From a virus (lineage: Duplodnaviria; Heunggongvirae; Uroviricota; Caudoviricetes), in IMG/VR virus record IMGVR_UViG_2562617151_000001, positions 1-11,799 of that record: a stretch of 11,799 nucleotides of DNA. One strand, given 5' to 3'. Position 1 is the stretch's first letter; the number at the start of each line of letters is the position of its first letter. The notes under the pieces are model-generated. The model saw only the letters and a program-made list of their open reading frames with translations. It searched no databases and was not told the origin of the DNA. The position numbers and the translations under genes are program-made. Below are positions 1 through 11,799 of the stretch, piece by piece.

Positions 1-1254
1 ATGCTGGAACAAATGGGCATTGCCGCGAAGCAAGCCTCGTATAAATTAGCGCAACTCTCCAGCCGCGAAAAAAATCGCGTGCTGGAAAAAATCGCCGATG
101 AACTGGAAGCACAAAGCGAAATCATCCTCAACGCTAACGCCCAGGATGTTGCTGACGCGCGAGCCAATGGCCTTAGCGAAGCGATGCTTGACCGTCTGGC
201 ACTGACGCCCGCACGGCTGAAAGGCATTGCCGACGATGTACGTCAGGTGTGCAACCTCGCCGATCCGGTGGGGCAGGTAATCGATGGCGGCGTACTGGAC
301 AGCGGCCTGCGTCTTGAGCGTCGTCGCGTACCGCTGGGGGTTATTGGCGTGATTTATGAAGCGCGCCCGAACGTGACGGTTGATGTCGCTTCGCTGTGCC
401 TGAAAACCGGTAATGCGGTGATCCTGCGCGGTGGCAAAGAAACGTGTCGCACTAACGCTGCAACGGTGGCGGTGATTCAGGACGCCCTGAAATCCTGCGG
501 CTTACCGGCGGGTGCCGTGCAGGCGATTGATAATCCTGACCGTGCGCTGGTCAGTGAAATGCTGCGTATGGATAAATACATCGACATGCTGATCCCGCGT
601 GGTGGCGCTGGTTTGCATAAACTGTGCCGTGAACAGTCGACAATCCCGGTGATCACAGGTGGTATAGGCGTATGCCATATTTACGTTGATGAAAGTGTAG
701 AGATCGCTGAAGCATTAAAAGTGATCGTCAACGCGAAAACTCAGCGTCCGAGCACATGTAATACGGTTGAAACGTTGCTGGTGAATAAAAACATCGCCGA
801 TAGCTTCCTGCCCGCATTAAGCAAACAAATGGCGGAAAGCGGCGTGACATTACACGCAGATGCAGCTGCACTGGCGCAGTTGCAGGCAGGCCCTGCGAAG
901 GTGGTTGCTGTTAAAGCCGAAGAGTATGACGATGAGTTTCTGTCATTAGATTTGAACGTCAAAATCGTCAGCGATCTTGACGATGCCATCGCCCATATTC
1001 GTGAACACGGCACACAACACTCCGATGCGATCCTGACCCGCGATATGCGCAACGCCCAGCGTTTTGTTAACGAAGTGGATTCGTCCGCTGTTTACGTTAA
1101 CGCCTCTACGCGTTTTACCGACGGCGGCCAGTTTGGTCTGGGTGCGGAAGTGGCGGTAAGCACACAAAAACTCCACGCGCGTGGCCCAATGGGGCTGGAA
1201 GCACTGACCACTTACAAGTGGATCGGCATTGGTGATTACACCATTCGTGCGTAA
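1..1254 (+). CDS. proA: gamma-glutamyl phosphate reductase (glutamate-5-semialdehyde dehydrogenase), complete, 417 aa
   Basis: ORF 1..1254 translates to [30 protein letters not shown]...[13 protein letters not shown], which I recognise as E. coli ProA at full length (aldehyde dehydrogenase fold). Its position immediately upstream of thrW matches the K-12 arrangement proA-thrW. Confidence 0.96.
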
Positions 1255-1368
1255 ATAAAACCGGGTGATGCAAAAGTAGCCATTTGATTCACAAGGCCAT
1301 TGACGCATCGCCCGGTTAGTTTTAACCTTGTCCACCGTGATTCACGTTCGTGAACATGTCCTTTCAGG

Positions 1369-1444
1369 GCCGATATAGCTCAGTTGGTAGAGCAGCGCAT
1401 TCGTAATGCGAAGGTCGTAGGTTCGACTCCTATTATCGGCACCA
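1369..1444 (+). tRNA. thrW: tRNA-Thr, anticodon CGU
   Basis: 76-nt sequence GCCGATATAGCTCAGTTGGTAGAGCAGCGCATTCGTAATGCGAAGGTCGTAGGTTCGACTCCTATTATCGGCACCA read directly: 7-bp acceptor stem GCCGATA/TATCGGC, D-loop AGTTGGTAG, anticodon loop TTCGTAA (anticodon CGT), T-arm GGTTCGACTCC, encoded CCA. thrW is the known integration target of P22-family integrases. Confidence 0.95.
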
Positions 1445-1458
1445 TTTAAATCAATAAG

Positions 1459-2622
1459 TTACACATCATTAGTACCTTCCTTATTTTTTGACTGGGACAA
1501 ATTTGGGACCGATGGGTTCAGGATCGAGTCTATTTGCCGTGCGTGTTCGGTAAGGTGATTAGGTGCGAGGTGAGCATATCGACGAACCATTTCGATAGAC
1601 TCCCAGCCTCCCATTTCCTGTAACACTGACAACGGGACACCGGCTTGAACCAGCCAACTTGCCCAGGTGTGTCTCAAGTCATGAAATCTGAAATCATCAA
1701 TACCAGCTCGTCTCAGCGCCGCTTTCCAGGCTGTGTTTGCGTCATATCGCATCTTCCTGACTGTTGGCGCTTTCGTTCCGTCTGGTTTGGTACAGCTTTC
1801 CTTGTACACAAATACCCAATGGTGATGATTCCCGATTTGTTTTTTCAATACGCGACATGCAGTATCATTCAGCGCAACGCCAATTGCGCGGTTTGATTTA
1901 CTCTCTTCCGGGTTTATCCATGCCACCCGGCGCTGCATATCTATTTGTTGCCATTCAAGGTTGATGATGTTCGAGCGTCTTAAGCCTGTTGCCAGTGCAA
2001 ATTCAACAACAGACTTTAATGGCTCCGGACATTCATCAATCAGCCTTTGTGCTTCATGAGGCTCCAGCCAGCGGATCCGTTTATTCTTTGGTTGAGGCAC
2101 TTTAATAATTGGTGCCTTATCCAGCATTTTCCATTCACGCTCTGCGGCTCTTAGTAGGGCCTTTATAAATGAAAGATGCGTAGCCTTCGTTGCAACGGAC
2201 GCTGGTTTTGGCGTGTATTCTGGAACAGGTTTCCCTTTTTTTCTGCATGCTTCTGCCCTGAGTTTCCAGTTTTCCTCATGACGCCGGTTCGTCATTTTCT
2301 GCATTGCTGAATAAATTTTTGATTCAGTAATGTCTCTTAGTTGCATTCCTGCGAAATGTTGAAGCCAGAATCCGATCCGGCTTTTGTCATCGTCCAGTGA
2401 TTTTTTATGTGCTTTCTCTTCAAGCCACCTGACACACGCTTCCTCGAACGTTATATCAGGTATTTCACCAAGTTTGCTGACCCGCCATGCTTCAGCCTTT
2501 AGCTTGTCATGGAGTTCTGTCGCCTGCCTTTTGTCCTTTGTTCCAAGAGACTGTTTAAATCTTTTACCGTTCGGCAATGTGAAACTGGCGTACCATATTT
2601 CACCTCTGCGGAAGAGTGACAT
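1459..2622 (-). CDS. int: phage integrase, tyrosine recombinase, P22 Int-like, 387 aa
   Basis: ORF translation [47 protein letters not shown]...[39 protein letters not shown] matches my recollection of P22 integrase almost end to end, including the C-terminal R..H..R..Y catalytic region. It is adjacent to the tRNA target; stop TAA at 1461-1459. Confidence 0.95.
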
Positions 2623-2849
2623 TTTCTTTCCTCTGTTATGCCATCACCCGCGCTCACCTGGACAGTATGCAGCGGAGACTGAAGAGCCGCAATGCAGGCT
2701 TGTCGTGTTGTGAGGTAAGGAGATTTATTCTTAGTGGGATCTTTGCGTGTTGCCTGAAGACGCCCTGTGCGTATCCAGTTAATGGCAGTCGGTCTGGATA
2801 TCTTGAGAAAATGACAGGCCTCATCGAGTGTGAGGCTGTATGGCTCCAT
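2499..2849 (-). CDS. xis: excisionase (P22 Xis-like), 116 aa
   Basis: The internal ATG at 2849-2847 gives [57 protein letters not shown]..., a P22-type Xis with a helix-turn-helix. The 28 codons upstream in the track ORF look like a read-through artefact. The ATG overlaps the stop of the upstream gene as TAATG. The 3' end overlaps int by 124 nt in another frame. Confidence 0.8.
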
Positions 2850-3154
2850 TATTTCACCTCTTGCTGTGACATTGTTGAAAAATGGATACCAGCTCGTTGC
2901 TGCCAGACGATCCAACCGAGAGTCATATCCCATGCCATGTATTCGTTATCGCCGTTTTTTGCTCTCCGACGATCTACTAAGTCACCGAAACGCTTTTCCA
3001 TGAATAATTCATAAGCTTCGCGTTCATCTGGTTCTACTTCCAGAGATCGGAGTGCGATTTCATAAGCACGGCGCTCAATATCGTCTCGCACGTCAAGGCT
3101 GCTGATACGCTCTTTAATTTCTTTAATCAGTTCTTTGTCGGTAAAAGTGGTCAT
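2849..3154 (-). CDS. YfdT-like prophage early-left protein, 101 aa, function unknown
   Basis: ORF MTTFTDKELIKEIKERISSLDVRDDIERRAYEIALRSLE...; its position and length fit the CPS-53 yfdT slot (from memory). Start ATG 3154-3152 overlaps the stop of the upstream gene as TAATG; its own stop overlaps the xis start. Confidence 0.7.
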   Translation of the reverse strand: MTTFTDKELIKEIKERISSLDVRDDIERRAYEIALRSLEVEPDEREAYELFMEKRFGDLVDRRRAKNGDNEYMAWDMTLGWIVWQQRAGIHFSTMSQQEVK

Positions 3155-3516
3155 TATGCTCCAGCCTCCGGTGCTTTTGGCATTACTGCCCAGTGAGTGA
3201 TATTGACGTTTTCAAGGTCCCCGACCTGAAATGTCCACTGCCATTCTCCGGTTTCTTTTTGTCCCCAGGTGTACCAGAGAGAACGCCAGCCAATTAGCCA
3301 GCCTTCTCCGTTAGCATCGAATAACAAAACACTTTCATTTGCTGGTGGCAGTTCAGTTGACACTGGTATTACTTTGTTTTCCTGTGCTGCACATTTAGCT
3401 TCAAGCGCATCGAATTTACGCACCAGGTATTCAGCATCTGTTTCATTTACTTTCAGATCTCGCGGTACACATCTCCCACGAAGAAACCCTTCCATTTCGA
3501 AAACATTCATGCGCAT
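3154..3516 (-). CDS. YfdS-like prophage early-left protein, 120 aa, function unknown
   Basis: ORF MRMNVFEMEGFLRGRCVPRDLKVNETDAEYLVRKFDALEAK...THWAVMPKAPEAGA. Coupled to neighbours: the upstream gene's TGA (3509-3507) overlaps ATG codon 3 of this ORF, and its stop overlaps the downstream start. Confidence 0.7.
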   Translation of the reverse strand: MRMNVFEMEGFLRGRCVPRDLKVNETDAEYLVRKFDALEAKCAAQENKVIPVSTELPPANESVLLFDANGEGWLIGWRSLWYTWGQKETGEWQWTFQVGDLENVNITHWAVMPKAPEAGA

Positions 3517-4043
3517 TTGCGTAACTCCGATAACTCGTTAAAGCGTTCCATAAACATCCCGTAGGCATGGCCCGGTGCCAGTGGAATCACGTTGAACATC
3601 TCTGTTGCCGGGATACCTTCCAGTACAGGCCAGAAAGAGCCATCATCAAGCCCGAGATCGCGGCGTTCGGTTGCCAGCATGATGAGATCGGCATATTTCA
3701 CGGGCGTACTCATAACTGGGGGTAACCCGTATTTCTCACGGATTACGGCGTCTATTTTTTCTTCCATTTGTTTATAGTCAGGAAGAAGGCGTTTCAGTGG
3801 TGCGGGAATGTCCTGACAATACGCTTCTGTTGCATCATGCATTAACGCTTCGAAAGCAAACTCCTGCGGTACCAGCTGGCTGCAAAGCACCGCATGTTGG
3901 GCGACGCTGTAGAAGTGTGAAAGATGCCCTGCAAAGCGACAGATATTTGAGAGGGAAACTGCGATATCGTTAATCACGATGTCGTCTTTATTTATCCTGT
4001 CATAATAAAAATGCTTCCCGGAAAAAGTTTTAATAAATGACAT
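3507..4043 (-). CDS. HD-domain phosphohydrolase, YfdR-like (putative 5'-nucleotidase), 178 aa
   Basis: Start chosen at MSFIKTFSGKHFYY (ATG 4043-4041), preceded by GGAG about 8 nt upstream; the track ORF starts 9 codons earlier without an SD. HD signature visible: ...HLSHFYSVAQHAVL...EALMHDATEAY.... The length matches my recollection of K-12 YfdR. Confidence 0.8.
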   Translation of the reverse strand: MSFIKTFSGKHFYYDRINKDDIVINDIAVSLSNICRFAGHLSHFYSVAQHAVLCSQLVPQEFAFEALMHDATEAYCQDIPAPLKRLLPDYKQMEEKIDAVIREKYGLPPVMSTPVKYADLIMLATERRDLGLDDGSFWPVLEGIPATEMFNVIPLAPGHAYGMFMERFNELSELRKCA

Positions 4044-4170
4044 TTTGTTCTCCACGTATATGCGCTGCACCGCGCTGAATTCTGGTAAAAGGAAGCCCTC
4101 ACCATCCGGTGATTATTGAGTTAATTACGTTTCCATAAATGCCCCCGCAGGGGCATTTGCAGTAATGAAA

Positions 4171-4995
4171 TCAGGCGGTGAAAGTACCAATAAAGGTTTC
4201 GACTTTGCTGTCTTTGAATTTCTCAACAAGCAGATCACGAAATTCGTTAGCCATTTCTTCCTGCACTGCTTCCAGCTGAATAATGCGCAGAACCAGTACA
4301 GGGCGATCACCAGTGATAATGCTGAGTCGTAATTTAAATGGACGTTCTTTCAGGCCTTCAAACGGAACGCATTTAAATTCAAATGCCACTGGCATAATGT
4401 CTTTGGTCTTCGCTTCGACAGACTCCATCAGGGAGCGTTTGCCGCTGAAGTCATTGTCTTCAAAATCAGCAGTCTGGTTCGCTTCAATTGTGATTTTACG
4501 GACTGCCGCAGCCGCTTTTGTTGCCTGAATGGCGTCACCATTAGCATCAAAGCCCACAAGGTAGTCGGCCCAGTCTTCAATCCATTCTGCCAGTGACTTC
4601 TGGGAGTTACGCTCGCCGTTAACAGACAACAGAGCAGAGAACGGTGCTGTCTTTTTCAGTTTGAGAGTGGCGGTGTTATCTGCGTGACCTGGTTCATCAA
4701 TAGTACCCAGGTTAAGCACACTGACGGCACGCATATTATCAGCATCGATAAAGCAGCGGGTGCCTTCATCTGCAAGATCTTTAGAATAACGGGTAAAGTC
4801 ATCGATGCTGGCAGTGGAAAGCGCACCACGGAAACGGAAGCGATTTAAATTAAATTTTTCCAGATCATGAATGCGGAAATTCTCAGGCAATGCCACAGCA
4901 TCGGCACCAATCTTACTGATAATTTCATTAACACCCTGAGCAGAAATAAGGGCATGGATTTGATTAATTGCGGTTGCGTCTAAGTTCTGAGACAT
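4171..4995 (-). CDS. YfdQ-like protein (I recall this as the DUF2303 family), 274 aa
   Basis: [60 protein letters not shown]...; SD GAGGA about 6 nt upstream of ATG 4995-4993. The order yfdP-Q-R-S-T-like is the same as in CPS-53. Confidence 0.8.
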
Positions 4996-5060
4996 AATAA
5001 GTCCTCACTATATAAAGATATTCAGTGATGAGATAAATAATCAGTTAATTAAAAACGATA

Positions 5061-5423
5061 TTAACGACCTGCTGCGCGGAGTTTTCCGTCAGGTTCACCG
5101 GCAAGAGTCAGTAACTGTCCCTGGTCTTCCTGCAGAATAGTCAGGCGACCACCGCGATTGACATACATCGGCGTTTCGGTGGTGTCTTCTTCGGAAATTT
5201 TCCCGCGGTTAGTCGGGCGAACATATGAGAGTTTGTGTTTGATTTTCACACGGTTCTCATCAAATGGTTCGATTTCCAGGTTGAGTGAGACCTTACCTTT
5301 GGTTTTCGTGTTCATCACACCGGAAGCGACTTCACTGAGAACTGCGCCGATTTTGGTTTCAAATACGCCGCCGTCCAGCTCCCCGATAAATGCATGCACA
5401 TCAGTACTGCGTTCGCTAGCCAT
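5061..5423 (-). CDS. YfdP-like prophage protein, 120 aa; the track ORF is N-terminally over-extended
   Basis: Start placed at MASERSTDVHAFIGELDGGVFETKIGAVLSEV (ATG 5423-5421) because GAGGAG lies about 8 nt upstream. The 106 codons upstream in the track ORF are R/C/P-rich low-complexity translation of GC-rich non-coding DNA. Confidence 0.65.
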   Translation of the reverse strand: MASERSTDVHAFIGELDGGVFETKIGAVLSEVASGVMNTKTKGKVSLNLEIEPFDENRVKIKHKLSYVRPTNRGKISEEDTTETPMYVNRGGRLTILQEDQGQLLTLAGEPDGKLRAAGR

Positions 5424-5439
5424 TTTGCTGCTCCTCATC

Positions 5440-5760
5440 ATATCGACCCTGCAAGGCCGATTAGTTTCTCCACAAAACAGAGAAGAACACCTGCGGTGGC
5501 AGCCGCCCGGATGGATTGGGTTATGAGCCCGTCGTCCGGTGATGCTCTTCTCTGTTTTGTAAAAAGGACGGTACCAGCCGGAAGCAAGGGTACAAACTGG
5601 TACCGCCGGGACTACACACAGCATAAAGTTGTGGTGCCGGGTGCCTCCCGGTGCCTGGCGAAGGTTGCACACCAGACGGGTGGGTATCCACAGAAGGTCG
5701 ACTGTCAGCCTCAACCTTAACCCGCGTGCGCTGAGCCGCATTCACCACAACGCTAAGAAT
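5440..5760. other. GC-rich structured non-coding block; candidate structured RNA or relic of a foreign element
   Basis: No credible ORF in any frame (all translations are R/P/C-rich). Contains a perfect 15-bp inverted repeat (5472-5486 with 5546-5560), a 9-bp stem (5569-5577 with 5597-5605) and long-range 9-nt complementarity (5628-5636 with 5743-5751). Visibly more GC-rich than the flanking phage DNA. Confidence 0.3.
5472..5560. repeat. perfect 15-bp inverted repeat ACAAAACAGAGAAGA / TCTTCTCTGTTTTGT separated by a 59-nt GC-rich spacer
   Basis: Read directly: arm 5472-5486 is the exact reverse complement of 5546-5560; 2 further complementary bases lie inside after one mismatch. Confidence 0.85.
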
Positions 5761-5824
5761 TCTCTCTGGTTGAAAATACTTAGCTGTTATGTGCCTGCTT
5801 TTAGCCACATCAGGCGAGGTGGAC

Positions 5825-5876
5825 CTGGTTATTCCCCAACAACAAGGATTCGGTTAATCTGGTTATCCCCAACAAC
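5825..5876 (+). repeat. tandem direct repeat CTGGTTAT(T)CCCCAACAAC x2, 34-bp period, immediately upstream of the 144-aa ORF
   Basis: Copy 1 at 5825-5843 and copy 2 at 5859-5876 differ by one extra T; a partial CTGGTT copy lies at 5766-5771. Copy 2 ends 5 nt before the AAGGA SD of the ORF starting at 5892. Confidence 0.8.
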
Positions 5877-5891
5877 GCAAAAGGAAAAGAA

Positions 5892-6326
5892 ATGTCCGGT
5901 AATATCTATACGCTGTACAAATCCCACTGTGAAAATGTTGGAAAGTATCGGGGCATTGAAATCAGTGGGGTAGTGTCATCAGTCGAAATAAGCAAAGTTG
6001 AATCAAGGGCAACATTACTTACTCTTCTGGACCTTGTCTTACATGAGCACCGGAAGAAATTCGGCACTCCCTATAATCAGTTGAATGGGAAAAAAGCTCT
6101 GGTTCACCTTATTCTGATGAAGCATCACTGGATGCCAAAACAGATTAATGAGATGAAATTTGATGAACTTCTTCTTTCAATTCAGGATGAATTCACGCTT
6201 GATAAAATAAGCGTAACCGCCCAGAAATTTTTAGATTATCGAGACTGGAGATCACAAATTCATCACTTTGATGATTTTGACGAAAATGAATGGGATCCTA
6301 ATTTGTCTGCACAATATCTAAAGTAA
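5892..6326 (+). CDS. hypothetical protein, 144 aa, no recognisable family; moron-like, opposite strand to the early-left operon
   Basis: ATG 5892 preceded by AAGGA with a 6-nt spacer; stop TAA 6324-6326. Protein MSGNIYTLYKSHCENVGKYRGIEISGVVSSVEISKVESRATLLTLLDLVLHEHRKKFGTPYNQ... has protein-like composition (K/E/D/H-rich, ordinary hydrophobic content). AT-rich codon usage contrasts with the neighbouring GC-rich block. Confidence 0.7.
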   Translation: MSGNIYTLYKSHCENVGKYRGIEISGVVSSVEISKVESRATLLTLLDLVLHEHRKKFGTPYNQLNGKKALVHLILMKHHWMPKQINEMKFDELLLSIQDEFTLDKISVTAQKFLDYRDWRSQIHHFDDFDENEWDPNLSAQYLK

Positions 6327-6504
6327 CATCCTGTGATAAAACCGTGATTTCCTGATCCAGTTTTTTTAAGGAGTCTATTGTTTCCTGTCGATAAGACAGC
6401 ACTTCACGAAGCTGGTTTATAGCTGCCAGCTTCTTTGCCATCCACTCGTAAATTTCCTCATTTGTGTATCCGGGCGCGACGATTTTGGGTTCTGTTTTGT
6501 GCAT
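6298..6504 (-). CDS. hypothetical small protein, 68 aa; first gene downstream of the putative P_L (the position of N)
   Basis: Start at MHKTEPKIVAPGYTNEEIYEWMAKKLAAINQLREVL... (ATG 6504-6502), preceded by a strong SD GAGGAGG about 7 nt upstream; the track ORF begins 5 codons earlier. The 3' end overlaps the 144-aa ORF by 29 nt (convergent). Confidence 0.6.
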   Translation of the reverse strand: MHKTEPKIVAPGYTNEEIYEWMAKKLAAINQLREVLSYRQETIDSLKKLDQEITVLSQDVTLDIVQTN

Positions 6505-6562
6505 TTCACACCTCCTCAAGTTATCAGTTACTTGTTGATGGGGACCAGATTGTTAAAGAGCT

Positions 6563-6590
6563 AAGCGTCCTGTAGGGCGCTTTTTTGTTG
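6563..6590 (+). terminator. intrinsic (rho-independent) terminator-like hairpin plus T-tract
   Basis: AAGCGTCC-TGTA-GGGCGCTT stem (8 bp including one G-U) followed by TTTTTT at 6581-6586. On the minus strand the stem is preceded by an A-tract and followed by a U-poor sequence, so it is mainly plus-strand and at most weakly bidirectional. Confidence 0.55.
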
Positions 6591-6669
6591 CTAACGAATC
6601 ACCCTAGACTTTATATGCCCCAGGCGGCTACTTCGTGGGCGTCCTGCCTGTTCGTTATCTTTGATATAA

Positions 6670-6740
6670 AATCTAACTTAACTTAGTTATTATGGCAAGA
6701 GAAAACACCAAACTTTTCTTAGTTCGGTGCCTTAGTTAGA
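6670..6740 (-). promoter_or_regulatory. putative O_L / P_L region (leftward early promoter with repressor operators)
   Basis: Heptamer CTTAGTT occurs at 6682, 6718 and 6731, the same motif as in the cI-cro intergenic region. Minus-strand candidate promoter: -35 TTGCCA (complement of 6693-6698), 17-nt spacer containing AACTTAGTT, -10 TAGATT (complement of 6670-6675). Confidence 0.4.
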
Positions 6741-6751
6741 GAAGAGAGGTC

Positions 6752-7378
6752 TTAGAGTTCGTATTGAACTCCTTTGACTACACCAATGATAAGGCAATTA
6801 CCATTGATAGGGATGTTGGGATACCGAGGATTTAATGGCACTAAAAACTTTTGAGGGCCATCGATGACTAATTTTTTTACTGTAGCTTCGTTTGTTCCAT
6901 CAAGTCGAGCGATGACTATTTTTCCATGACGAGGTTCTGCATCTGGATCTACAATCACTGTTGCGCCTTCTGGTATTGTTGGGAGGCCATTAGGGTTAGT
7001 CATGGAGTCACCTTTAACCTCTAATGCAAATGAGTTATCACCAATCTTTAATGATGTATCTACCCACTTGTCCACTTCACTAAACACTTCTGCTGCCCTG
7101 CACTCAGTAAACTGCCCAGCCTGAACCCACGATATTACAGGAACTCTGCGCATGTTTGTGACGAGTTTGCCTTCAAACTCAGCACCATAAAGAATGTAAT
7201 CTATTGACGTATTGAAGAACTTCGCTAATTTCGAAAGTGCCTCCCCACCAGGGGTATTGATGTCTTTCTCCCAGTACCCCACAGCAACGTCGCTTACTCC
7301 ACAAAATTTACCCAATTCTTTCTGGGACGTTCCGGTAACTCTTCTCAGAGCTTTTATACGCTGACCAACCGTTTCCAT
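6752..7378 (-). CDS. cI: prophage repressor, CI / P22 C2-like (N-terminal HTH plus C-terminal S24 LexA-like autopeptidase domain), 208 aa
   Basis: ORF METVGQRIKALRRVTGTSQKELGKFCGVSDVAVGYWEKD... (HTH) ... ISWVQAGQF...LEVKGDSMTNP...ATVIVDPDAEPRHGKIVIARLDG.EATVKKL...GNCLIIGVV. Ser-Lys dyad context and overall architecture match the lambda CI / P22 C2 class. Divergent from cro. Confidence 0.92.
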   Translation of the reverse strand: METVGQRIKALRRVTGTSQKELGKFCGVSDVAVGYWEKDINTPGGEALSKLAKFFNTSIDYILYGAEFEGKLVTNMRRVPVISWVQAGQFTECRAAEVFSEVDKWVDTSLKIGDNSFALEVKGDSMTNPNGLPTIPEGATVIVDPDAEPRHGKIVIARLDGTNEATVKKLVIDGPQKFLVPLNPRYPNIPINGNCLIIGVVKGVQYEL

Positions 7379-7396
7379 AGGAGCACCATTTCTTGA

Positions 7397-7468
7397 ATTG
7401 CTAAGTAATCTTAGTTTTTATTGACCAAAGATAGATTTGTAATTAGCATCTAATAAAACTTAGTTTGG
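7397..7468 (+). promoter_or_regulatory. putative O_R / P_R region between cI and cro
   Basis: Near-palindrome CTAAGTAATCTTAG at 7401-7414; CTTAGTT at 7410 and 7459; 9-mer AACTTAGTT at 7457-7465 is identical to 6680-6688. Candidate P_R: -35 TTGACC 7421-7426, 17-nt spacer, -10 TAGCAT 7444-7449, then SD GGAGG 7467-7471 and cro ATG 7476. Confidence 0.45.
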
Positions 7469-7475
7469 AGGGCGT

Positions 7476-7676
7476 ATGACAACTGACGATATCGAAAGCT
7501 ACTTCGGCAGTATTGAGAAAGTTGCTGCTTTTTTCGGCATAACAACTGAAGCCGTTTATCAGTGGCGAAACCGTCCGGGCCAGTTAATTCCAAAAGGACG
7601 TGCAGCAGAAGCTGCATATAGAACTTGCGGACGGTTGCCATTTAAACCTGAGCTTTATGAAAAATCTAATGGATAA
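7476..7676 (+). CDS. cro: Cro-like transcriptional regulator (Cro / YdaS-type HTH), 66 aa
   Basis: [69 protein letters not shown]; a small HTH protein divergently transcribed from the repressor, with an SD in front. Confidence 0.85.
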   Translation: MTTDDIESYFGSIEKVAAFFGITTEAVYQWRNRPGQLIPKGRAAEAAYRTCGRLPFKPELYEKSNG

Positions 7677-8265
7677 ATCGATTAACAGAAACCACAGAAC
7701 GATGAGGCTAACCGTGGGTAAGCATCACTGGAAAGTAGAAAAACAGCCTGAGTGGTACGTGAAAGCTGTCAGAAAAACTATCGCAGCGTTGCCGGGTGGT
7801 TACGCTGAAGCAGCTGACTGGCTGGATGTAACAGAGAACGCATTATTTAACCGCCTTCGTGCCGATGGCGATCAGATTTTCCCGCTGGGATGGGCAATGA
7901 TTTTGCAACGTGCTGGTGGAACTCACTTCATTGCTGACGCTGTGGCGCAGTCTGCAAATGGCGTCTTTGTGTCTCTTCCTGATGTCGAGGATGTGGACAA
8001 CGCCGATATCAACCAACGCCTGCTGGAGGTCATTGAACAGATCGGCAGTTATTCAAAACAGATTCGTTCAGCAATTGAAGACGGTGTAGTGGAACCGCAT
8101 GAGAAGACAGCAATTAACGACGAGCTGTACCTCTCAATTTCGAAGCTGCAGGAGCATGCAGCACTGGTCTACAAAATTTTTTGCATTTCAGAAAGTAATG
8201 ACGCCCGCGAGTGTGCAGCTCCGGGCGCCGTGGCGTGTCGTGACTGTGGAGAAACTAACGCATGA
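7657..8265 (+). CDS. CII-like phage regulatory protein (YdaT / CP76-type); start uncertain
   Basis: ORF ...[73 protein letters not shown]...; lies directly after cro as in lambdoid layouts. Candidate starts are ATG 7657 and ATG 7669 (the latter 5 nt upstream of the cro stop); the track's 7600 start is a GTG only 1 nt after an SD-like AAAGGA and is unlikely. Confidence 0.65.
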
Positions 8266-8440
8266 ACAGTTTAACAACACACTACCGTCGCTCGCAACTG
8301 ATTGCGCTTCCTGTACCGGGTGGAAAAGCGAAGGTGGAGTATTGCTATGCAGTAAATGTACCAGGTGGCAGGGTAATTGTAACCCACAGCTTTGCAGAGT
8401 GGGCTGTGGGTGATTTTAACCGGCAAAAGGAGACAGTCCT

Positions 8441-8620
8441 TTGCGACAAGTTAACCGCTGGTTCAAAGATCACTACGGAGTACCCGTCAGAGTCATTCGT
8501 TGGGAGCCGGAAACACAACGGGTTATCTACCTCCGCGAAGGCTATGAGCATGAATGCTTCAGTCCGCTCGAACAGTTTCGTCGTAAATTCAGGGAAATAG
8601 AGGTCGGTCATGAGCACTAA
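8441..8620 (+). CDS. possible small protein (59 aa) with TTG start; alternative to the ATG-initiated 112-aa ORF 8262..8600
   Basis: AAGGAG sits 8 nt upstream of TTG 8441. The frame gives [59 protein letters not shown], a protein-like composition, ending at TAA 8618-8620 (overlapping the initiator start by 11 nt). It is absent from the ATG/GTG-based track. Confidence 0.35.
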
Positions 8621-9581
8621 ATTAACCGGCTATGTATGGGATGGTTGCGCTGCGTCAGGCATGAAATTATCCAGCGTGGCAATTATGGCCCGCCTGGCTG
8701 ATTTCAGTAATGACGAAGGTGTGTGCTGGCCATCAATTGAAACCATTGCCCGTCAGATTGGCGCGGGGATGAGTACCGTCAGAACGGCTATCGCACGGCT
8801 GGAAGCAGAAGGCTGGTTAACGCGTAAGGCGCGTCGCCAGGGTAACCGCAATGCGTCGAATGTTTATCAGCTTAACGTTGCGAAGCTTCAGGCAGCGGCA
8901 TTTTCTCAATTGTCAGATTCTGACCCGTCAAAATCTGACGCATCAAAATCTGACCCGTCAAAATCTGACGCATCAAAATCTGACCCGTCAAAATTTGATG
9001 CGTCGAAATCTGGCAAAAAAGCGGGTTTTCACCCGTCAGAATCTGGCGGGGATCCGTCAGTAAAATCAAAACATGATCCGTCAGATAAAAAAACTTCTCG
9101 TCCGGACGCTTCGCAACCGGACACGCAGACGGCTGAACAGGAGTTTTTAACTCGCCATCCTGATGCGGTTGTATTCAGCCCTAAAAAGCGCCAGTGGGGA
9201 ACGCAGGATGATTTGACCTGCGCACAGTGGCTCTGGAAAAAAATCATCGCCCTGTACGAGCAGGCCGCCGAATGTGACGGCGAGGTGGTTCGTCCCAAAG
9301 AACCGAACTGGACAGCCTGGGCAAACGAAATTCGCCTGATGTGTGTGCAGGATGGTCGTACTCACAAACAAATCTGCGAGATGTACAGCCGCGTCAGCCG
9401 CGATCCGTTCTGGTGCCGTAACGTGCTCAGCCCGTCGAAGCTGCGGGAAAAATGGGATGAGCTTTCCCTGCGCTTATCGCCGTCCGTCAGCACGTACACA
9501 GAAAAACGCGAAGACCCGTACTTCAAAGCCAGTTACGACAACGTGGACTACAGCCAGATCCCGGCAGGATTCAGGGGGTGA
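8610..9581 (+). CDS. phage replication initiation protein (lambda O-like role; N-terminal HTH, internal iteron-encoded linker), 323 aa
   Basis: N-terminus [70 protein letters not shown] is a typical helix-turn-helix replication-protein domain. The internal SDPSKSDASKSDPSKSDASK stretch is encoded by a 15-bp iteron array, the lambdoid ori-within-initiator arrangement. SD AGAGG precedes ATG 8610. Confidence 0.85.
   Translation: MSTKLTGYVWDGCAASGMKLSSVAIMARLADFSNDEGVCWPSIETIARQIGAGMSTVRTAIARLEAEGWLTRKARRQGNRNASNVYQLNVAKLQAAAFSQLSDSDPSKSDASKSDPSKSDASKSDPSKFDASKSGKKAGFHPSESGGDPSVKSKHDPSDKKTSRPDASQPDTQTAEQEFLTRHPDAVVFSPKKRQWGTQDDLTCAQWLWKKIIALYEQAAECDGEVVRPKEPNWTAWANEIRLMCVQDGRTHKQICEMYSRVSRDPFWCRNVLSPSKLREKWDELSLRLSPSVSTYTEKREDPYFKASYDNVDYSQIPAGFRG
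8919..9008. repeat. iteron array: six tandem 15-bp units alternating TCTGACCCGTCAAAA / TCTGACGCATCAAAA; probable prophage origin of replication
   Basis: Units at 8919, 8934, 8949, 8964, 8979 and 8994 (the last degenerate), with degenerate copies flanking (8911-8918, 9009-9023) and GATCCGTCAG repeated at 9051 and 9075, followed by an A-rich stretch at 9084-9095. Located inside the initiator CDS. Confidence 0.85.
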
Positions 9582-9583
9582 TC

Positions 9584-10072
9584 ATGAGTCTTTTGAATGA
9601 AGTTCAGAAATACATTGAAGCCCATCCGGGGTGTACTTCCGGAGACATTGCGGATGCTTTTGCAGGTTACTCACGGCAGCGCGTTCTGCAGTCAGCAAGC
9701 AAGTTACGTCAGAGTGGGCGTGTGGCTCACCGTTGTGAAGGGGATACACGCAGACATTTCCCGCGCCTGACTGAGAGAGCGCAGGAGGCGGAACCGCAAC
9801 CAGTTCGTGAAACCAGACCTGTGCGCAATTTCTATGTCGGCACTAACGACCCGCGGGAGATTTTGTGCCTGACCCGCCAGGCTGAAGAACTGGAGTCCAG
9901 GGGCTTATACCGTCGTGCTGCAACGGTGTGGATGGCGGCATTCCGTGAAAGCCACTCCCAGCCAGAACGAAACAATTTTCTGGCGCGTCGTGAGCAGTGT
10001 TTACGGAAAAGCAGCAAGCGCGCTGTATCGAGTGATGAGTGGTATCTGTCAGGGAATTACGTGGGGGCGTAA
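9584..10072 (+). CDS. PerC-family (Pch-like) regulator domain protein with an N-terminal winged-helix-like region, 162 aa
   Basis: C-terminal LTRQAEELESRGLYRRAATVWMAAFRESHSQPERNNFLARREQCLRK matches the PerC/Pch signature (LE..GLWRRAA..W ... RR..C). ATG 9584 is preceded by GGGGG; the GTG 9578 in the track is less likely. The stop overlaps the next start as TAATG. Confidence 0.6.
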   Translation: MSLLNEVQKYIEAHPGCTSGDIADAFAGYSRQRVLQSASKLRQSGRVAHRCEGDTRRHFPRLTERAQEAEPQPVRETRPVRNFYVGTNDPREILCLTRQAEELESRGLYRRAATVWMAAFRESHSQPERNNFLARREQCLRKSSKRAVSSDEWYLSGNYVGA

Positions 10073-10398
10073 TGACGACGTTAACTCAATGCCAGCAGCA
10101 GGTGCTGGATATGCTGATTTCTTATCAGAAAGAGCGTGGCTTTCCGCCAACCAATCAGGAGGTGGCAACCATGCTGGGATACCGTTCAGTGAATGCAGCG
10201 GTAGAGCATCTTCGCGCACTGGAGAAAAAAGGCGTCATCACGATAAAGCGTGGCGTGGCCCGGGGGATAACGCTTCATACCGCGGTGAAGGACGACGACA
10301 GCGAGGCGGTCGGGATTATCCGCGCACTGCTTGCCGGTGAGGAAAACGCAAGGTTGCGTGCAACCCACTGGTTACATGAGAGGGGCCTGAAAGTATGA
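10072..10398 (+). CDS. LexA N-terminal DNA-binding-domain protein without the S24 peptidase domain, 108 aa
   Basis: MTTLTQCQQQVLDMLISYQKERGFPPTNQEVATMLGYRSVNAAVEHLRALEKKGVITIKRGVARGITL aligns by eye with the LexA DNA-binding domain (LexA: ...[55 protein letters not shown]...). No Ser/Lys peptidase domain follows. Confidence 0.7.
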   Translation: MTTLTQCQQQVLDMLISYQKERGFPPTNQEVATMLGYRSVNAAVEHLRALEKKGVITIKRGVARGITLHTAVKDDDSEAVGIIRALLAGEENARLRATHWLHERGLKV

Positions 10399-10784
10399 AG
10401 CTGATCCTGCCTTTTCCGCCCAGCGTGAACACGTACTGGCGACACCCCAACAAAGGGGCGTTTGCAGGTAAGAGCCTGATAAGCGCGGCGGGGCGCAAAT
10501 TCCAGAGCGCGGCGTGTGCAGCAATAGTTGAGCAGTTACGTCGTCTGCCAAAACCAACGTCGGCACCTGCTTCAGTGGAGATCGTGTTGTTTCCTCCGGA
10601 TAACCGGATCCGCGATCTGGACAACTATAACAAGGCGCTGTTTGACGCCCTGACCCACGCGGGTGTGTGGGAAGACGACAGCCAGGTGAAAAGAATGCTG
10701 GTGGAGTGGGGACCGGTTATCCCGGAAGGGAAGGTCGAGATCACTATCAGTAAGTACGAGAAAACGGCGGGTGCAGCCGCCTGA
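10395..10784 (+). CDS. rusA: Holliday-junction resolvase RusA (crossover junction endodeoxyribonuclease), 129 aa
   Basis: MKLILPFPPSVNTYWRH...DNRIRDLDNYNKALFDALTHAGVWEDDSQV... follows the RusA pattern (PP..N.YYRH ... RRDLDN..K...DALT.AG.W.DD.QV). ATGA overlap with the upstream stop; typical nin-region gene. Confidence 0.88.
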   Translation: MKLILPFPPSVNTYWRHPNKGAFAGKSLISAAGRKFQSAACAAIVEQLRRLPKPTSAPASVEIVLFPPDNRIRDLDNYNKALFDALTHAGVWEDDSQVKRMLVEWGPVIPEGKVEITISKYEKTAGAAA

Positions 10785-10803
10785 TCAAGAGGAGAAACGA
10801 AGT

Positions 10804-11247
10804 ATGAATAATCTGATGGTCATTGATGGTATTGAAGTTCGTCGTGATGCTTATGGGCGTTACAGCCTGAACGATCTGCATCGCGCAGCAGTAGCATCTG
10901 GTGCAAATGCCAGAACCAAGGAGCCGGGAAAGTTTCTTTCCAGCCAACAAACTGTTGAGCTTGTTCATGAATTGACCAACACCCAGAATTTGGGTGTTGA
11001 CCCGGTGAGTGTGATTCATGGGGGAAATGAACGGGGAACTTATGTCTGCAAGGAACTGGTGTATGCCTATGCAATGTGGATCAGCCCGTCATTCCATCTG
11101 AAGGTGATCCGTACTTTCGACATGGTAACCAGCGCACCGGAAAAATTATCCGGACAGGCTGCTGACAAGATGCAGGCTGGTGTGATTCTGCTGGACTTTA
11201 TGCGTCGGGAGTTACCCGAACCGCGACAAGCCCTATATCCGGAGTAA
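10804..11247 (+). CDS. KilA-N domain protein, 147 aa
   Basis: Start at MNNLMVIDGIEVRRDAYGRYSLNDLHRAA (ATG 10804, SD AAGAGGAG 9 nt upstream); the GTG 10771 in the track is unlikely. ...GTYVCKELVYAYAMWISPSFHLKVIRTF fits the conserved KilA-N C-terminal block. Confidence 0.7.
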   Translation: MNNLMVIDGIEVRRDAYGRYSLNDLHRAAVASGANARTKEPGKFLSSQQTVELVHELTNTQNLGVDPVSVIHGGNERGTYVCKELVYAYAMWISPSFHLKVIRTFDMVTSAPEKLSGQAADKMQAGVILLDFMRRELPEPRQALYPE

Positions 11248-11250
11248 TCC

Positions 11251-11799
11251 ATGCATCGTATAGACACGAAAACCGCGCAGAAGGATAAGTTCGGCGCGGG
11301 TAAGAACGGTTTTACCCGTGGTAACCCCCAGACAGGCACGCCTGCCACCGATCTGGATGATGACTACTTTGACATGTTGCAGGAGGAGCTTTGCAGCGTG
11401 GTGGAGGCATCCGGTGCCAGCCTAGAGAAGGGGCGGCACGACCAGTTGCTTACCGCGCTTCGTGCGCTGCTGTTAAGCCGCAAGAATCCGTTTGGCGATA
11501 TCAAATCGGACGGCACGGTGAAAACGGCTCTCGAAAACCTTGGTTTGGGAGAAGCGGCGAAAAGGGATGTGGGCACAGGAGATAATCAGATACCGGATAT
11601 GGGAGCATTCGCTTCTGGTTCGGGATGGTTCAGGCTACCAGGTGGATATATTGTTCAGTTTGGCACTTTTTCAGGAAACACGACCCGCTTTATCAGTGGA
11701 CACTTCCCTATACCATTCCCTAATCAGCCGATGGTTTCAGTCAGTGTTATGTCTGATGCCGTTCAGTCAGACCCGTCGAATCCTCGCCCCGCAGGTTTT
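11251..11799 (+). CDS. tail-fibre-like protein, N-terminal 183 codons; 3' end beyond the window
   Basis: ATG 11251 with GGAG 7 nt upstream; open to the window end (absent from the track because there is no stop). Translation [74 protein letters not shown]...[21 protein letters not shown] resembles phage tail-fibre proteins by recollection; the family assignment is tentative. Confidence 0.5.

Follow-up and report, generated by a model that had tools for sequence, protein, structure and literature searches.

A yfdPQRST cassette in the early left operon of an SfV/SfIV-type prophage, a candidate module for damping host replication initiation

The virus record IMGVR_UViG_2562617151_000001 (Caudoviricetes), analyzed here over positions 1 to 11,799 (the whole stretch of 11,799 nucleotides (nt), referred to below as the window), carries five genes that almost certainly represent the yfdPQRST cassette of Escherichia coli K-12 in its native setting, the early left operon of a lambdoid prophage. 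As a whole account of the cassette, an SfV/SfIV-type leftward early module that would damp initiation of replication by the host is somewhat favored, at a little better than an even chance. That inhibition of host initiation is the main biological role of the cassette is less secure, and is placed at or slightly below the balance point. The cassette, its phage homologues and its link to DnaA are already known, and the observation is correct rather than new. The modest, testable additions made here are the exact extent of a deletion in K-12, a yfdP-yfdQ(-yfdR) core and a covarying leader RNA. The cassette genes are as follows.

5423..5061, minus strand: yfdP, the first cassette gene, 120 amino acids (aa) from the chosen ATG, with a match to phrog_204
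4995..4171, minus strand: yfdQ, 274 aa, DUF2303
4043..3507, minus strand: yfdR, 178 aa from an ATG; the mechanical open reading frame (ORF) begins at the GTG at 4070
3516..3154, minus strand: yfdS, 120 aa, with a C-terminal DUF551 and a match to phrog_583
3154..2849, minus strand: yfdT, 101 aa, with a match to phrog_660

In the ORF table, the span 5423..2849 is filled exactly by these five consecutive minus-strand ORFs. Similarity searches against K-12 YfdP to YfdT are significant for all five proteins (96-99% identity), and protein comparison gives identical lengths with identities of 97.5, 99.3, 98.3, 95.9 and 96.1% for YfdP, YfdQ, YfdR, YfdS and YfdT, respectively. Window 2793..5442 aligns collinearly with CPS-53 (2650 nt, 96.5% identity). 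Chance is no explanation for such agreement, which bears out the initial annotation, where yfdPQRST had been recognized from the order and size of five co-oriented genes. The reference used was one K-12-type region, which is taken as CPS-53/KpLE1 because torI and dsdC adjoin it. By megablast, K-12-type chromosomes match at 96.6% over 100% of the query and are annotated there with yfdP, yfdQ, yfdR, "phage protein" and yfdT, and the span is found in 3300 of 5426 complete E. coli genomes (about 60%), often in decayed prophages. YfdR has only three differences from K-12 YfdR, all conservative (K16R, R92Q and D170E). The ratio of nonsynonymous to synonymous substitution (dN/dS) between the window copy and its K-12 counterpart is 0.075 overall, falling to 0.04 in yfdQ and 0.03 in yfdR, and these low values argue that the yfd genes are under purifying selection. 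YfdQ matches PF10065 (DUF2303) over profile positions 2-269 of 269 with an expectation value (E) of 2e-92 and 309.7 bits, against a cut-off of 26.6, and YfdS passes marginally for DUF551 (PF04448; 22.2 bits, cut-off 22, residues 50-117). The local copy of Pfam gave no match for YfdP or YfdT; in precomputed Pfam annotations, YfdP homologues belong to the recent family PF27127, "YfdP".

The surrounding features place the cassette within a prophage.

1..1254: proA
1369..1444: tRNA-Thr(CGU), thrW
2622..1459, minus strand: int, Pfam Phage_integrase, annotated as integrase in SfIV
2849..2499, minus strand: xis, the next gene after the cassette, P22-type, Pfam HTH_17, annotated as excisionase in SfIV
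6698..6670, minus strand: candidate leftward early promoter, TTGCCA-17-TAGATT, sigma-70-like, from a promoter scan (in silico only)
7378..6752, minus strand: repressor gene, S24/HTH
Plus strand: genes for a P22-type Cro, a CII (CP76)-like protein, an HTH_36 replication protein with 15-bp iterons, PerC, a protein with a LexA DNA-binding domain, RusA and KilA-N

Over window 2849..6656, identity to the functional Shigella phage SfIV is 98.8%; SfV follows at 98.2% and Escherichia phage Kati at 97.3%, and the genes are laid out alike in all three. The window is thus an SfV/SfIV-type lambdoid prophage at thrW, beside proA. SfIV (gp30-34) shares the order int-xis-yfdTSRQP-ECs1072-like-repressor, with a cassette set apart by point differences only, and the corresponding genes of SfV, which is also close to the window, are orf28-32. 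The immunity region of SfIV diverges from that of the window beyond about 6656, where alignment coverage ends. In the phage genome, gtr serotype-conversion genes lie across attP from int.

The yfdR and yfdS genes overlap by 10 nt, yfdS and yfdT by 1 nt, and the stop codon of yfdT overlaps the ATG of xis by 1 nt at 2849; xis and int also overlap. These overlaps resemble translational coupling, and the cassette is therefore part of one leftward unit that ends in xis-int. The cassette had been placed between xis and the immunity region, which is exact on the xis side only, given that about 1.3 kb (5424..6751) of structured RNA, an opposite-strand gene and a 73-aa ORF part yfdP from the repressor gene. 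The candidate promoter overlaps operator-like repeats of the family CTAA..CTTAGTT, which occur twice on each side of the repressor gene (6671-6688 and 6707-6724; 7401-7417 and 7448-7465), and these sites are plausibly the left and right operator and promoter pairs, OL/PL and OR/PR. As expected of a lambdoid PL operon, the cassette lies downstream of the promoter-like site and on the same strand as xis-int, and SfIV and three other genera are alike in this respect.

The connection to replication was made by Noguchi & Katayama 2016 (PMC4776307), who obtained yfdQRST as a multicopy suppressor of hda-185. Suppression requires yfdQ, yfdR and either yfdS or yfdT, and does not require yfdP. Multicopy yfdQRT or yfdQRS inhibits initiation both in vivo and in extracts, in wild-type, dnaAcos, seqA, DARS and diaA backgrounds, and cells with multicopy yfdQRST are more resistant to hydroxyurea. 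YfdR binds DnaA in extracts and in purified form, dependent on Phe46 in domain I of DnaA, and competes moderately with DiaA and DnaB. The statement in the initial annotation that YfdR binds DnaA, and that overexpression of yfdQRST inhibits initiation, agrees with this work, which later papers merely cite. DnaA binding and inhibition of initiation by the window YfdR are inferred from its 98.3% identity to the tested protein. The mode of binding, as discussed in PMC4776307, has parallels that are a likeness of mechanism without sequence relationship: DiaA and DnaB use the same Phe46 surface, and SirA of Bacillus subtilis uses the equivalent Phe49. Phage lambda P and Dps, also unrelated to YfdR in sequence, target DnaA as well, but lambda P binds domain III. 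YfdR differs from the other DnaA inhibitors in that it is an enzyme-like HD-fold protein and that its in vivo effect needs YfdQ together with YfdS or YfdT (PMC4776307).

In the favored account, the leftward unit would run from a repressor-controlled promoter candidate through the 73-aa ORF, the structured RNAs and yfdPQRST to xis and int. Given its place behind such a promoter, the cassette would be expected to stay off in the lysogen and to be transcribed soon after induction. In the lytic cycle, the module would damp initiation of host replication and would thereby leave DnaB and the replisome to the phage. The invariant catalytic residues of YfdR make it probable that the protein also acts as a (deoxy)nucleotide phosphohydrolase. 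The authors of PMC4776307 likewise suggest that the genes served the ancestral phage while it could still propagate, and they name SfV ORFs 29-31 as homologues of YfdQRST. The "candidate host-takeover module" of the initial annotation is therefore a hypothesis already offered in print.

Several points weigh against a role in host initiation. The replication phenotype is seen only with multicopy supply, initiation is unaffected when yfdQRST is deleted, and an artefact of overexpression is a possibility that the authors themselves allow (PMC4776307). In the same work, competition with DiaA and DnaB is only "moderate", and YfdQ, YfdS and YfdT are not detectably bound to YfdR or DnaA. A terminator-like hairpin stands between the promoter candidate and yfdP in the window, and no antiterminator was identified. 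Finally, need in the assay and conservation do not coincide: yfdS and yfdT are missing from nearly all loci outside Escherichia, and yfdP, a near-universal partner, is dispensable in the replication assay.

This last point comes from a scan with a YfdP profile, limited to one genome per species, which returned 80 loci. YfdQ follows directly in 76 of the 80 and YfdR in 57, but YfdS in only 5 and YfdT in only 2. A separate set of 80 IMG/VR loci, in which YfdQ is 99-100% identical, retains YfdP in all 80, YfdR in 78, YfdS in 62 and YfdT in 46; as all are near-identical in YfdQ, these loci are informative for modular boundaries only and not for diversity. Homology breakpoints in the E. coli matches fall inside yfdT, inside yfdS or at the yfdR/yfdQ boundary. 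By BLAST, Klebsiella, Yersinia ruckeri and Xenorhabdus have the order repressor, gap, YfdP, DUF2303 and a YfdR of 175-178 aa, followed by different genes, with proteins 53-65% identical to those of the window. A cluster of yfdP, yfdQ and an HD-phosphatase gene is described as common in lambdoid early left operons (PMC12315714). The yfbR/yfdQ/yfdP clusters of ST64B, LLS and other lambdoid phages in that work belong to the same three families in the same operon, but the ST64B/LLS-type relatives lack yfdS and yfdT, and their proteins are 53-77% identical. As judged from gene content, the evolutionary core is yfdP-yfdQ(-yfdR), and yfdS and yfdT are rare additions. The mismatch between this core and the set active in the assay (yfdQ, yfdR and yfdS or yfdT) calls for caution about a reading in terms of DnaA only.

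One alternative built on this core is that the true functional unit is a self-contained yfdP-yfdQ(-yfdR) module under an undescribed structured leader of about 150 nt, possibly related to STnc100/PasD. This is held tentatively, as a reading rather unlikely to be right in full. The leader could then act in cis as an RNase III site, an attenuator or an autoregulatory operator for YfdP/YfdQ. If so, prophage "sRNAs" (small RNAs) of STnc100 type would be leader domains of this operon, and inhibition of DnaA would be merely one facet of the module. The RNA features concerned are the following.

5567..5421, minus strand: structured leader RNA, 147 nt to the yfdP ATG, with helices P1 (23 bp), P2, P3 and P4
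5607..5561, minus strand: terminator-like hairpin, GGCGGUACCAG..CUGGUACCG, with a U5 run, from sequence reading and folding
5781..5558, minus strand: STnc100-like RNA domain, upstream of the leader and sharing the terminator

The leader folds into a long helix around two hairpins, followed by the small P4 hairpin before the Shine-Dalgarno sequence, with a folding z-score of about -6, and the U-run of the terminator-like hairpin forms the base of P1. Window 5607..5424 is retained in all 80 of the IMG/VR loci. The same architecture stands before yfdP in Klebsiella, Xenorhabdus and Yersinia, and is shared by most Enterobacterales loci of the species scan, with completely different stem sequences; the hairpin and U-run also precede the leader in other genera. 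The leader loci (L083, L088 and L093-L159) all lie directly upstream of yfdP. RNAalifold applied to 20 Enterobacteriaceae leaders gives 41 pairs in four helices, and a covariance model, R1, was built from that alignment. R1 matches the window at 123.9 bits (E 9e-35) as the sole sense-strand match, with no second copy, and finds one sense-strand match per locus in all but one locus, always ending at the yfdP ATG. Scores are 120-159 bits in close relatives and 18-60 bits in Yersinia, Serratia, Rahnella, Proteus and Morganella, and far lower on the antisense strand. The locus that departs from this pattern, from Rahnella (L139), has a second, weaker leader copy (26 bits, 2603-2745) about 260 nt upstream of the first.

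Covariation was scored in two ways in place of MAFFT alignments: plain MAFFT with RNAalifold on all 39 leaders yielded only 5 pairs, with subgroups out of register, and MAFFT on the stems only also shifted the register. In a register-anchored count of 24 stem positions in 39 non-redundant sequences, 83.9% are canonical, compared with 62.8 +/- 1.0% for shuffles and 30-56% for slid partners. Several stem positions fully covary, such as position 9, with GC in 12, CG in 12 and AU in 12. The stems hold 54 G:U against 11 A:C, and this excess places the structure on the yfdP-sense RNA. In the model-fitted alignment of 31 sequences, which itself leans towards structure and of which the register-anchored count is independent, 96.8% of cells pair (shuffled, 87.3 +/- 0.5%; slid, 37-56%), and 27 of the 41 pairs have double-sided changes, compared with 9.1 +/- 1.7 in shuffles and 0 of 500 shuffles as high. 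No Rfam family matches the leader at 5567..5421. The constant linkage to the start of yfdP suggests control in cis, and the 23 bp of P1 suggest an RNase III site. As a candidate for a new cis-regulatory element of phages, the covarying leader is specific and open to test.

A put-like antiterminator was considered for the leader and rejected. The put RNA of HK022 is about 70 nt with two stem-loops, in copies downstream of both early promoters (PMC9378689), and the leader runs to about 150 nt, is closed by a helix of 23 bp, contains a three-way junction and has no second copy in the window. As a separate observation, the terminator hairpin has conserved loop and bulge motifs in many genera, CCAACACCAGG(A/G)GG ... 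GA(A/U)GAUAAUGUUCUGA, among them a sequence resembling a Shine-Dalgarno site and what may be an AUG-UUC-UGA mini-ORF (loci L093, L103, L121-L123, L126, L131, L134, L142, L148, L149, L153, L154, L164 and L168). The terminator hairpin of the window does not have these motifs.

STnc100 and PasD are prophage-borne RNAs, and the whole Rfam model STnc100/PasD aligns to 5781..5558, with the conserved core GUGGUGAAU..CACCGGGAGGCACCCGGCACCAC and the terminator in common. The match to RF02076 (model positions 1-206) reaches 42.3 bits (E 1.6e-6), below the gathering score of 47, and on this score the domain is STnc100-like only and not a member of the family. None of the other IMG/VR loci has an STnc100 match at the gathering threshold, so the STnc100-like RNA is an optional neighbor. 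In three Buttiauxella loci (L095, L136 and L141), a sub-threshold STnc100-like core replaces P1-P3 and stands directly before P4 and yfdP. Therefore, the leader and STnc100-like domains may be alternative, possibly related, leader modules. A 226-aa ORF at 5741..5061, SfIVp34 in the SfIV annotation, spans the leader and much of the STnc100-like domain, and is probably an over-call across conserved non-coding RNA.

The main rival to a role in host initiation lies in the enzyme family of YfdR. By this explanation, which is judged unlikely, the main job of the cassette is nucleotide metabolism: YfdR, as an HD (deoxy)nucleoside-monophosphate phosphohydrolase, would alter the nucleotide pools at an early stage of infection, for phage replication or to counter nucleotide-based host defenses, with DnaA binding a side property of overproduction. 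The HD-superfamily motif H...HD...D is present in YfdR as H50, H69-D70 and D119. Across 26 homologues, down to 58% identity, R36, H50, H69, D70, D78 and D119 are invariant and E73 nearly so, which counts in favor of an enzymatic role and upholds the earlier description of YfdR as an HD-domain protein with a visible motif. YfdR matches the HD protein Atu1052 (PDB 2gz4; E 1e-13), a homologue in which the metal-motif residues align to the same positions, and matches phrog_318, "deoxyribonucleoside 5' monophosphate phosphatase", at E 7e-110; the PHROG and NCBI annotations are either of this type or 5'-deoxynucleotidase. The raised hydroxyurea resistance with multicopy yfdQRST is a phenotype linked to nucleotide pools (PMC4776307), and YfdR-like matches number 4727, compared with 617 for YfdQ and 284 for YfdP, as rough counts from word-index-limited searches.

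Against this, the YfdR score for the YfbR-like family PF12917 is 25.0, just under the gathering value of 25.9, a diaA deletion has a similar hydroxyurea phenotype (PMC4776307), and the obligate yfdP-yfdQ pair is left unexplained. YfdR is also below the curated cut-offs for PF13023 (17.3; cut-off 22.5) and NF003009 (20.6; cut-off 122), and by these scores is a divergent relative of YfbR and not an equivalog. K-12 YfdR is reported, at second hand, to have low nucleotide affinity.

A benefit to the lysogen has to be weighed against the structure of the K-12 locus, which corresponds to two abutting blocks of the window, 2793..5442 and 8843..10075. The alignment therefore describes K-12 as a clean 3.4-kb deletion of window 5443..8842, with one edge 19 nt upstream of the yfdP ATG and the other at codon 78 of the replication gene. 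CPS-53 keeps the five genes in the same order, lengths and strand relation, and past yfdT it still has a defunct piece of the same xis, but it lacks the leader RNA, the STnc100-like RNA, the ECs1072-family gene, the 73-aa ORF, the candidate promoter and operators, the repressor gene, cro, the cII-like gene and the 5' part of the replication gene. The K-12 cassette lies at argW with IntS and TorI, whereas that of the window lies at thrW with a P22-type Xis. In short, the window is the intact reference arrangement, and the copy used in K-12 experiments is a deletion fragment without the promoter.

As a consequence of the deletion, the K-12 cassette abuts the origin iterons. Six 15-bp iterons at 8913-9012, within the replication gene (8610-9581), all contain TCAGATTTTGA, which occurs in six copies compared with 0.4 expected. 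SrsR/YgfI binds most strongly in the "yfdO/yfdP spacer" of K-12, at four TCAGATTTTGA boxes, and activates yfdPQ in stationary phase (PMC9181523). These boxes are the replication iterons (window 8928..8998), and lie 3.4 kb from yfdP in the undeleted arrangement. SrsR control of yfdPQ in K-12 thus seems to have arisen incidentally, when the deletion put the origin iterons beside yfdP, and regulation and phenotypes in K-12 may not reflect the native module. In a separate search, no DnaA boxes were found in the window, compared with 1.1 expected by chance, and a reading of the GTTGTTGGGGATAACCAG repeats as DnaA sites was abandoned.

It is improbable, in this light, that the cassette is a stress-tolerance module expressed in stationary phase or under oxidative stress, with no lytic function. 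Such a benefit to the lysogen would fit the activation of yfdPQ by SrsR and the frequency of the cassette in E. coli genomes, often in decayed prophages. It would fit as well the reports, as cited in PMC4776307, that deletion of yfdQ or yfdS in K-12 increases sensitivity to hydrogen peroxide and that deletion of yfdQ increases sensitivity to methyl methanesulfonate. However, the SrsR boxes are beside yfdP only through the K-12 deletion, making that regulation an accident of K-12, and intact prophages have the cassette on the xis-int strand, behind a promoter under repressor control and a terminator-like hairpin, which is a lytic-early position.

That YfdP and YfdQ provide an unrecognized recombination or DNA-end function in place of a missing Red/Erf-type module is the least probable explanation and is given very little credence, although the window has no known recombinase gene between the repressor gene and xis, the cassette sits at the usual place of a Rec module, and the 36 chains of YfdQ in a PDB entry suggest, as a weak inference, a large homo-oligomer such as many annealases form. 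That entry, PDB 9o7m, "YfdQ Protein" (274 aa), is matched by YfdQ in a sequence search at E 1e-44. The literature searched mentions the identifier 9o7m nowhere, and no paper from 2024-26 on a YfdQ structure was found. YfdP has no significant match among PDB sequences, as a single sequence or as a profile, and structure prediction and fold searches gave no functional clue for YfdP or YfdQ. The seven proteins encoded in the interval from xis to the repressor gene gave no match to PADLOC defense models.

Some smaller features were noted within and beside the cassette. In the 127-nt gap between yfdQ and yfdR, 13 nt past the yfdQ stop codon, is a perfect hairpin, AAAUGCCCC-UGC-GGGGGCAUUU, at 4137-4158 on the minus strand. 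With only three U residues after the stem, it could serve as a weak terminator or affect the stability of the mRNA. In YfdS and in YfdT alike, the N-terminal 45-50 residues have matches of their own to several other PHROG families, irrespective of the C-terminal part, which suggests that both are mosaic, domain-shuffled small early proteins. Between yfdP and the repressor gene, the ECs1072-family gene (5892-6326, plus strand) lies on the opposite strand within the leftward operon and converges with the 73-aa ORF (phrog_1744; 6298-6519, minus strand), with an overlap of 29 nt. A plus-strand terminator-like site at 6563-6582 lies past the ECs1072-family gene. Inverted repeats of 20 nt, at 5856-5875 and 6532-6551, bracket the gene and the 73-aa ORF, which together look like an inserted accessory (moron-like) block.

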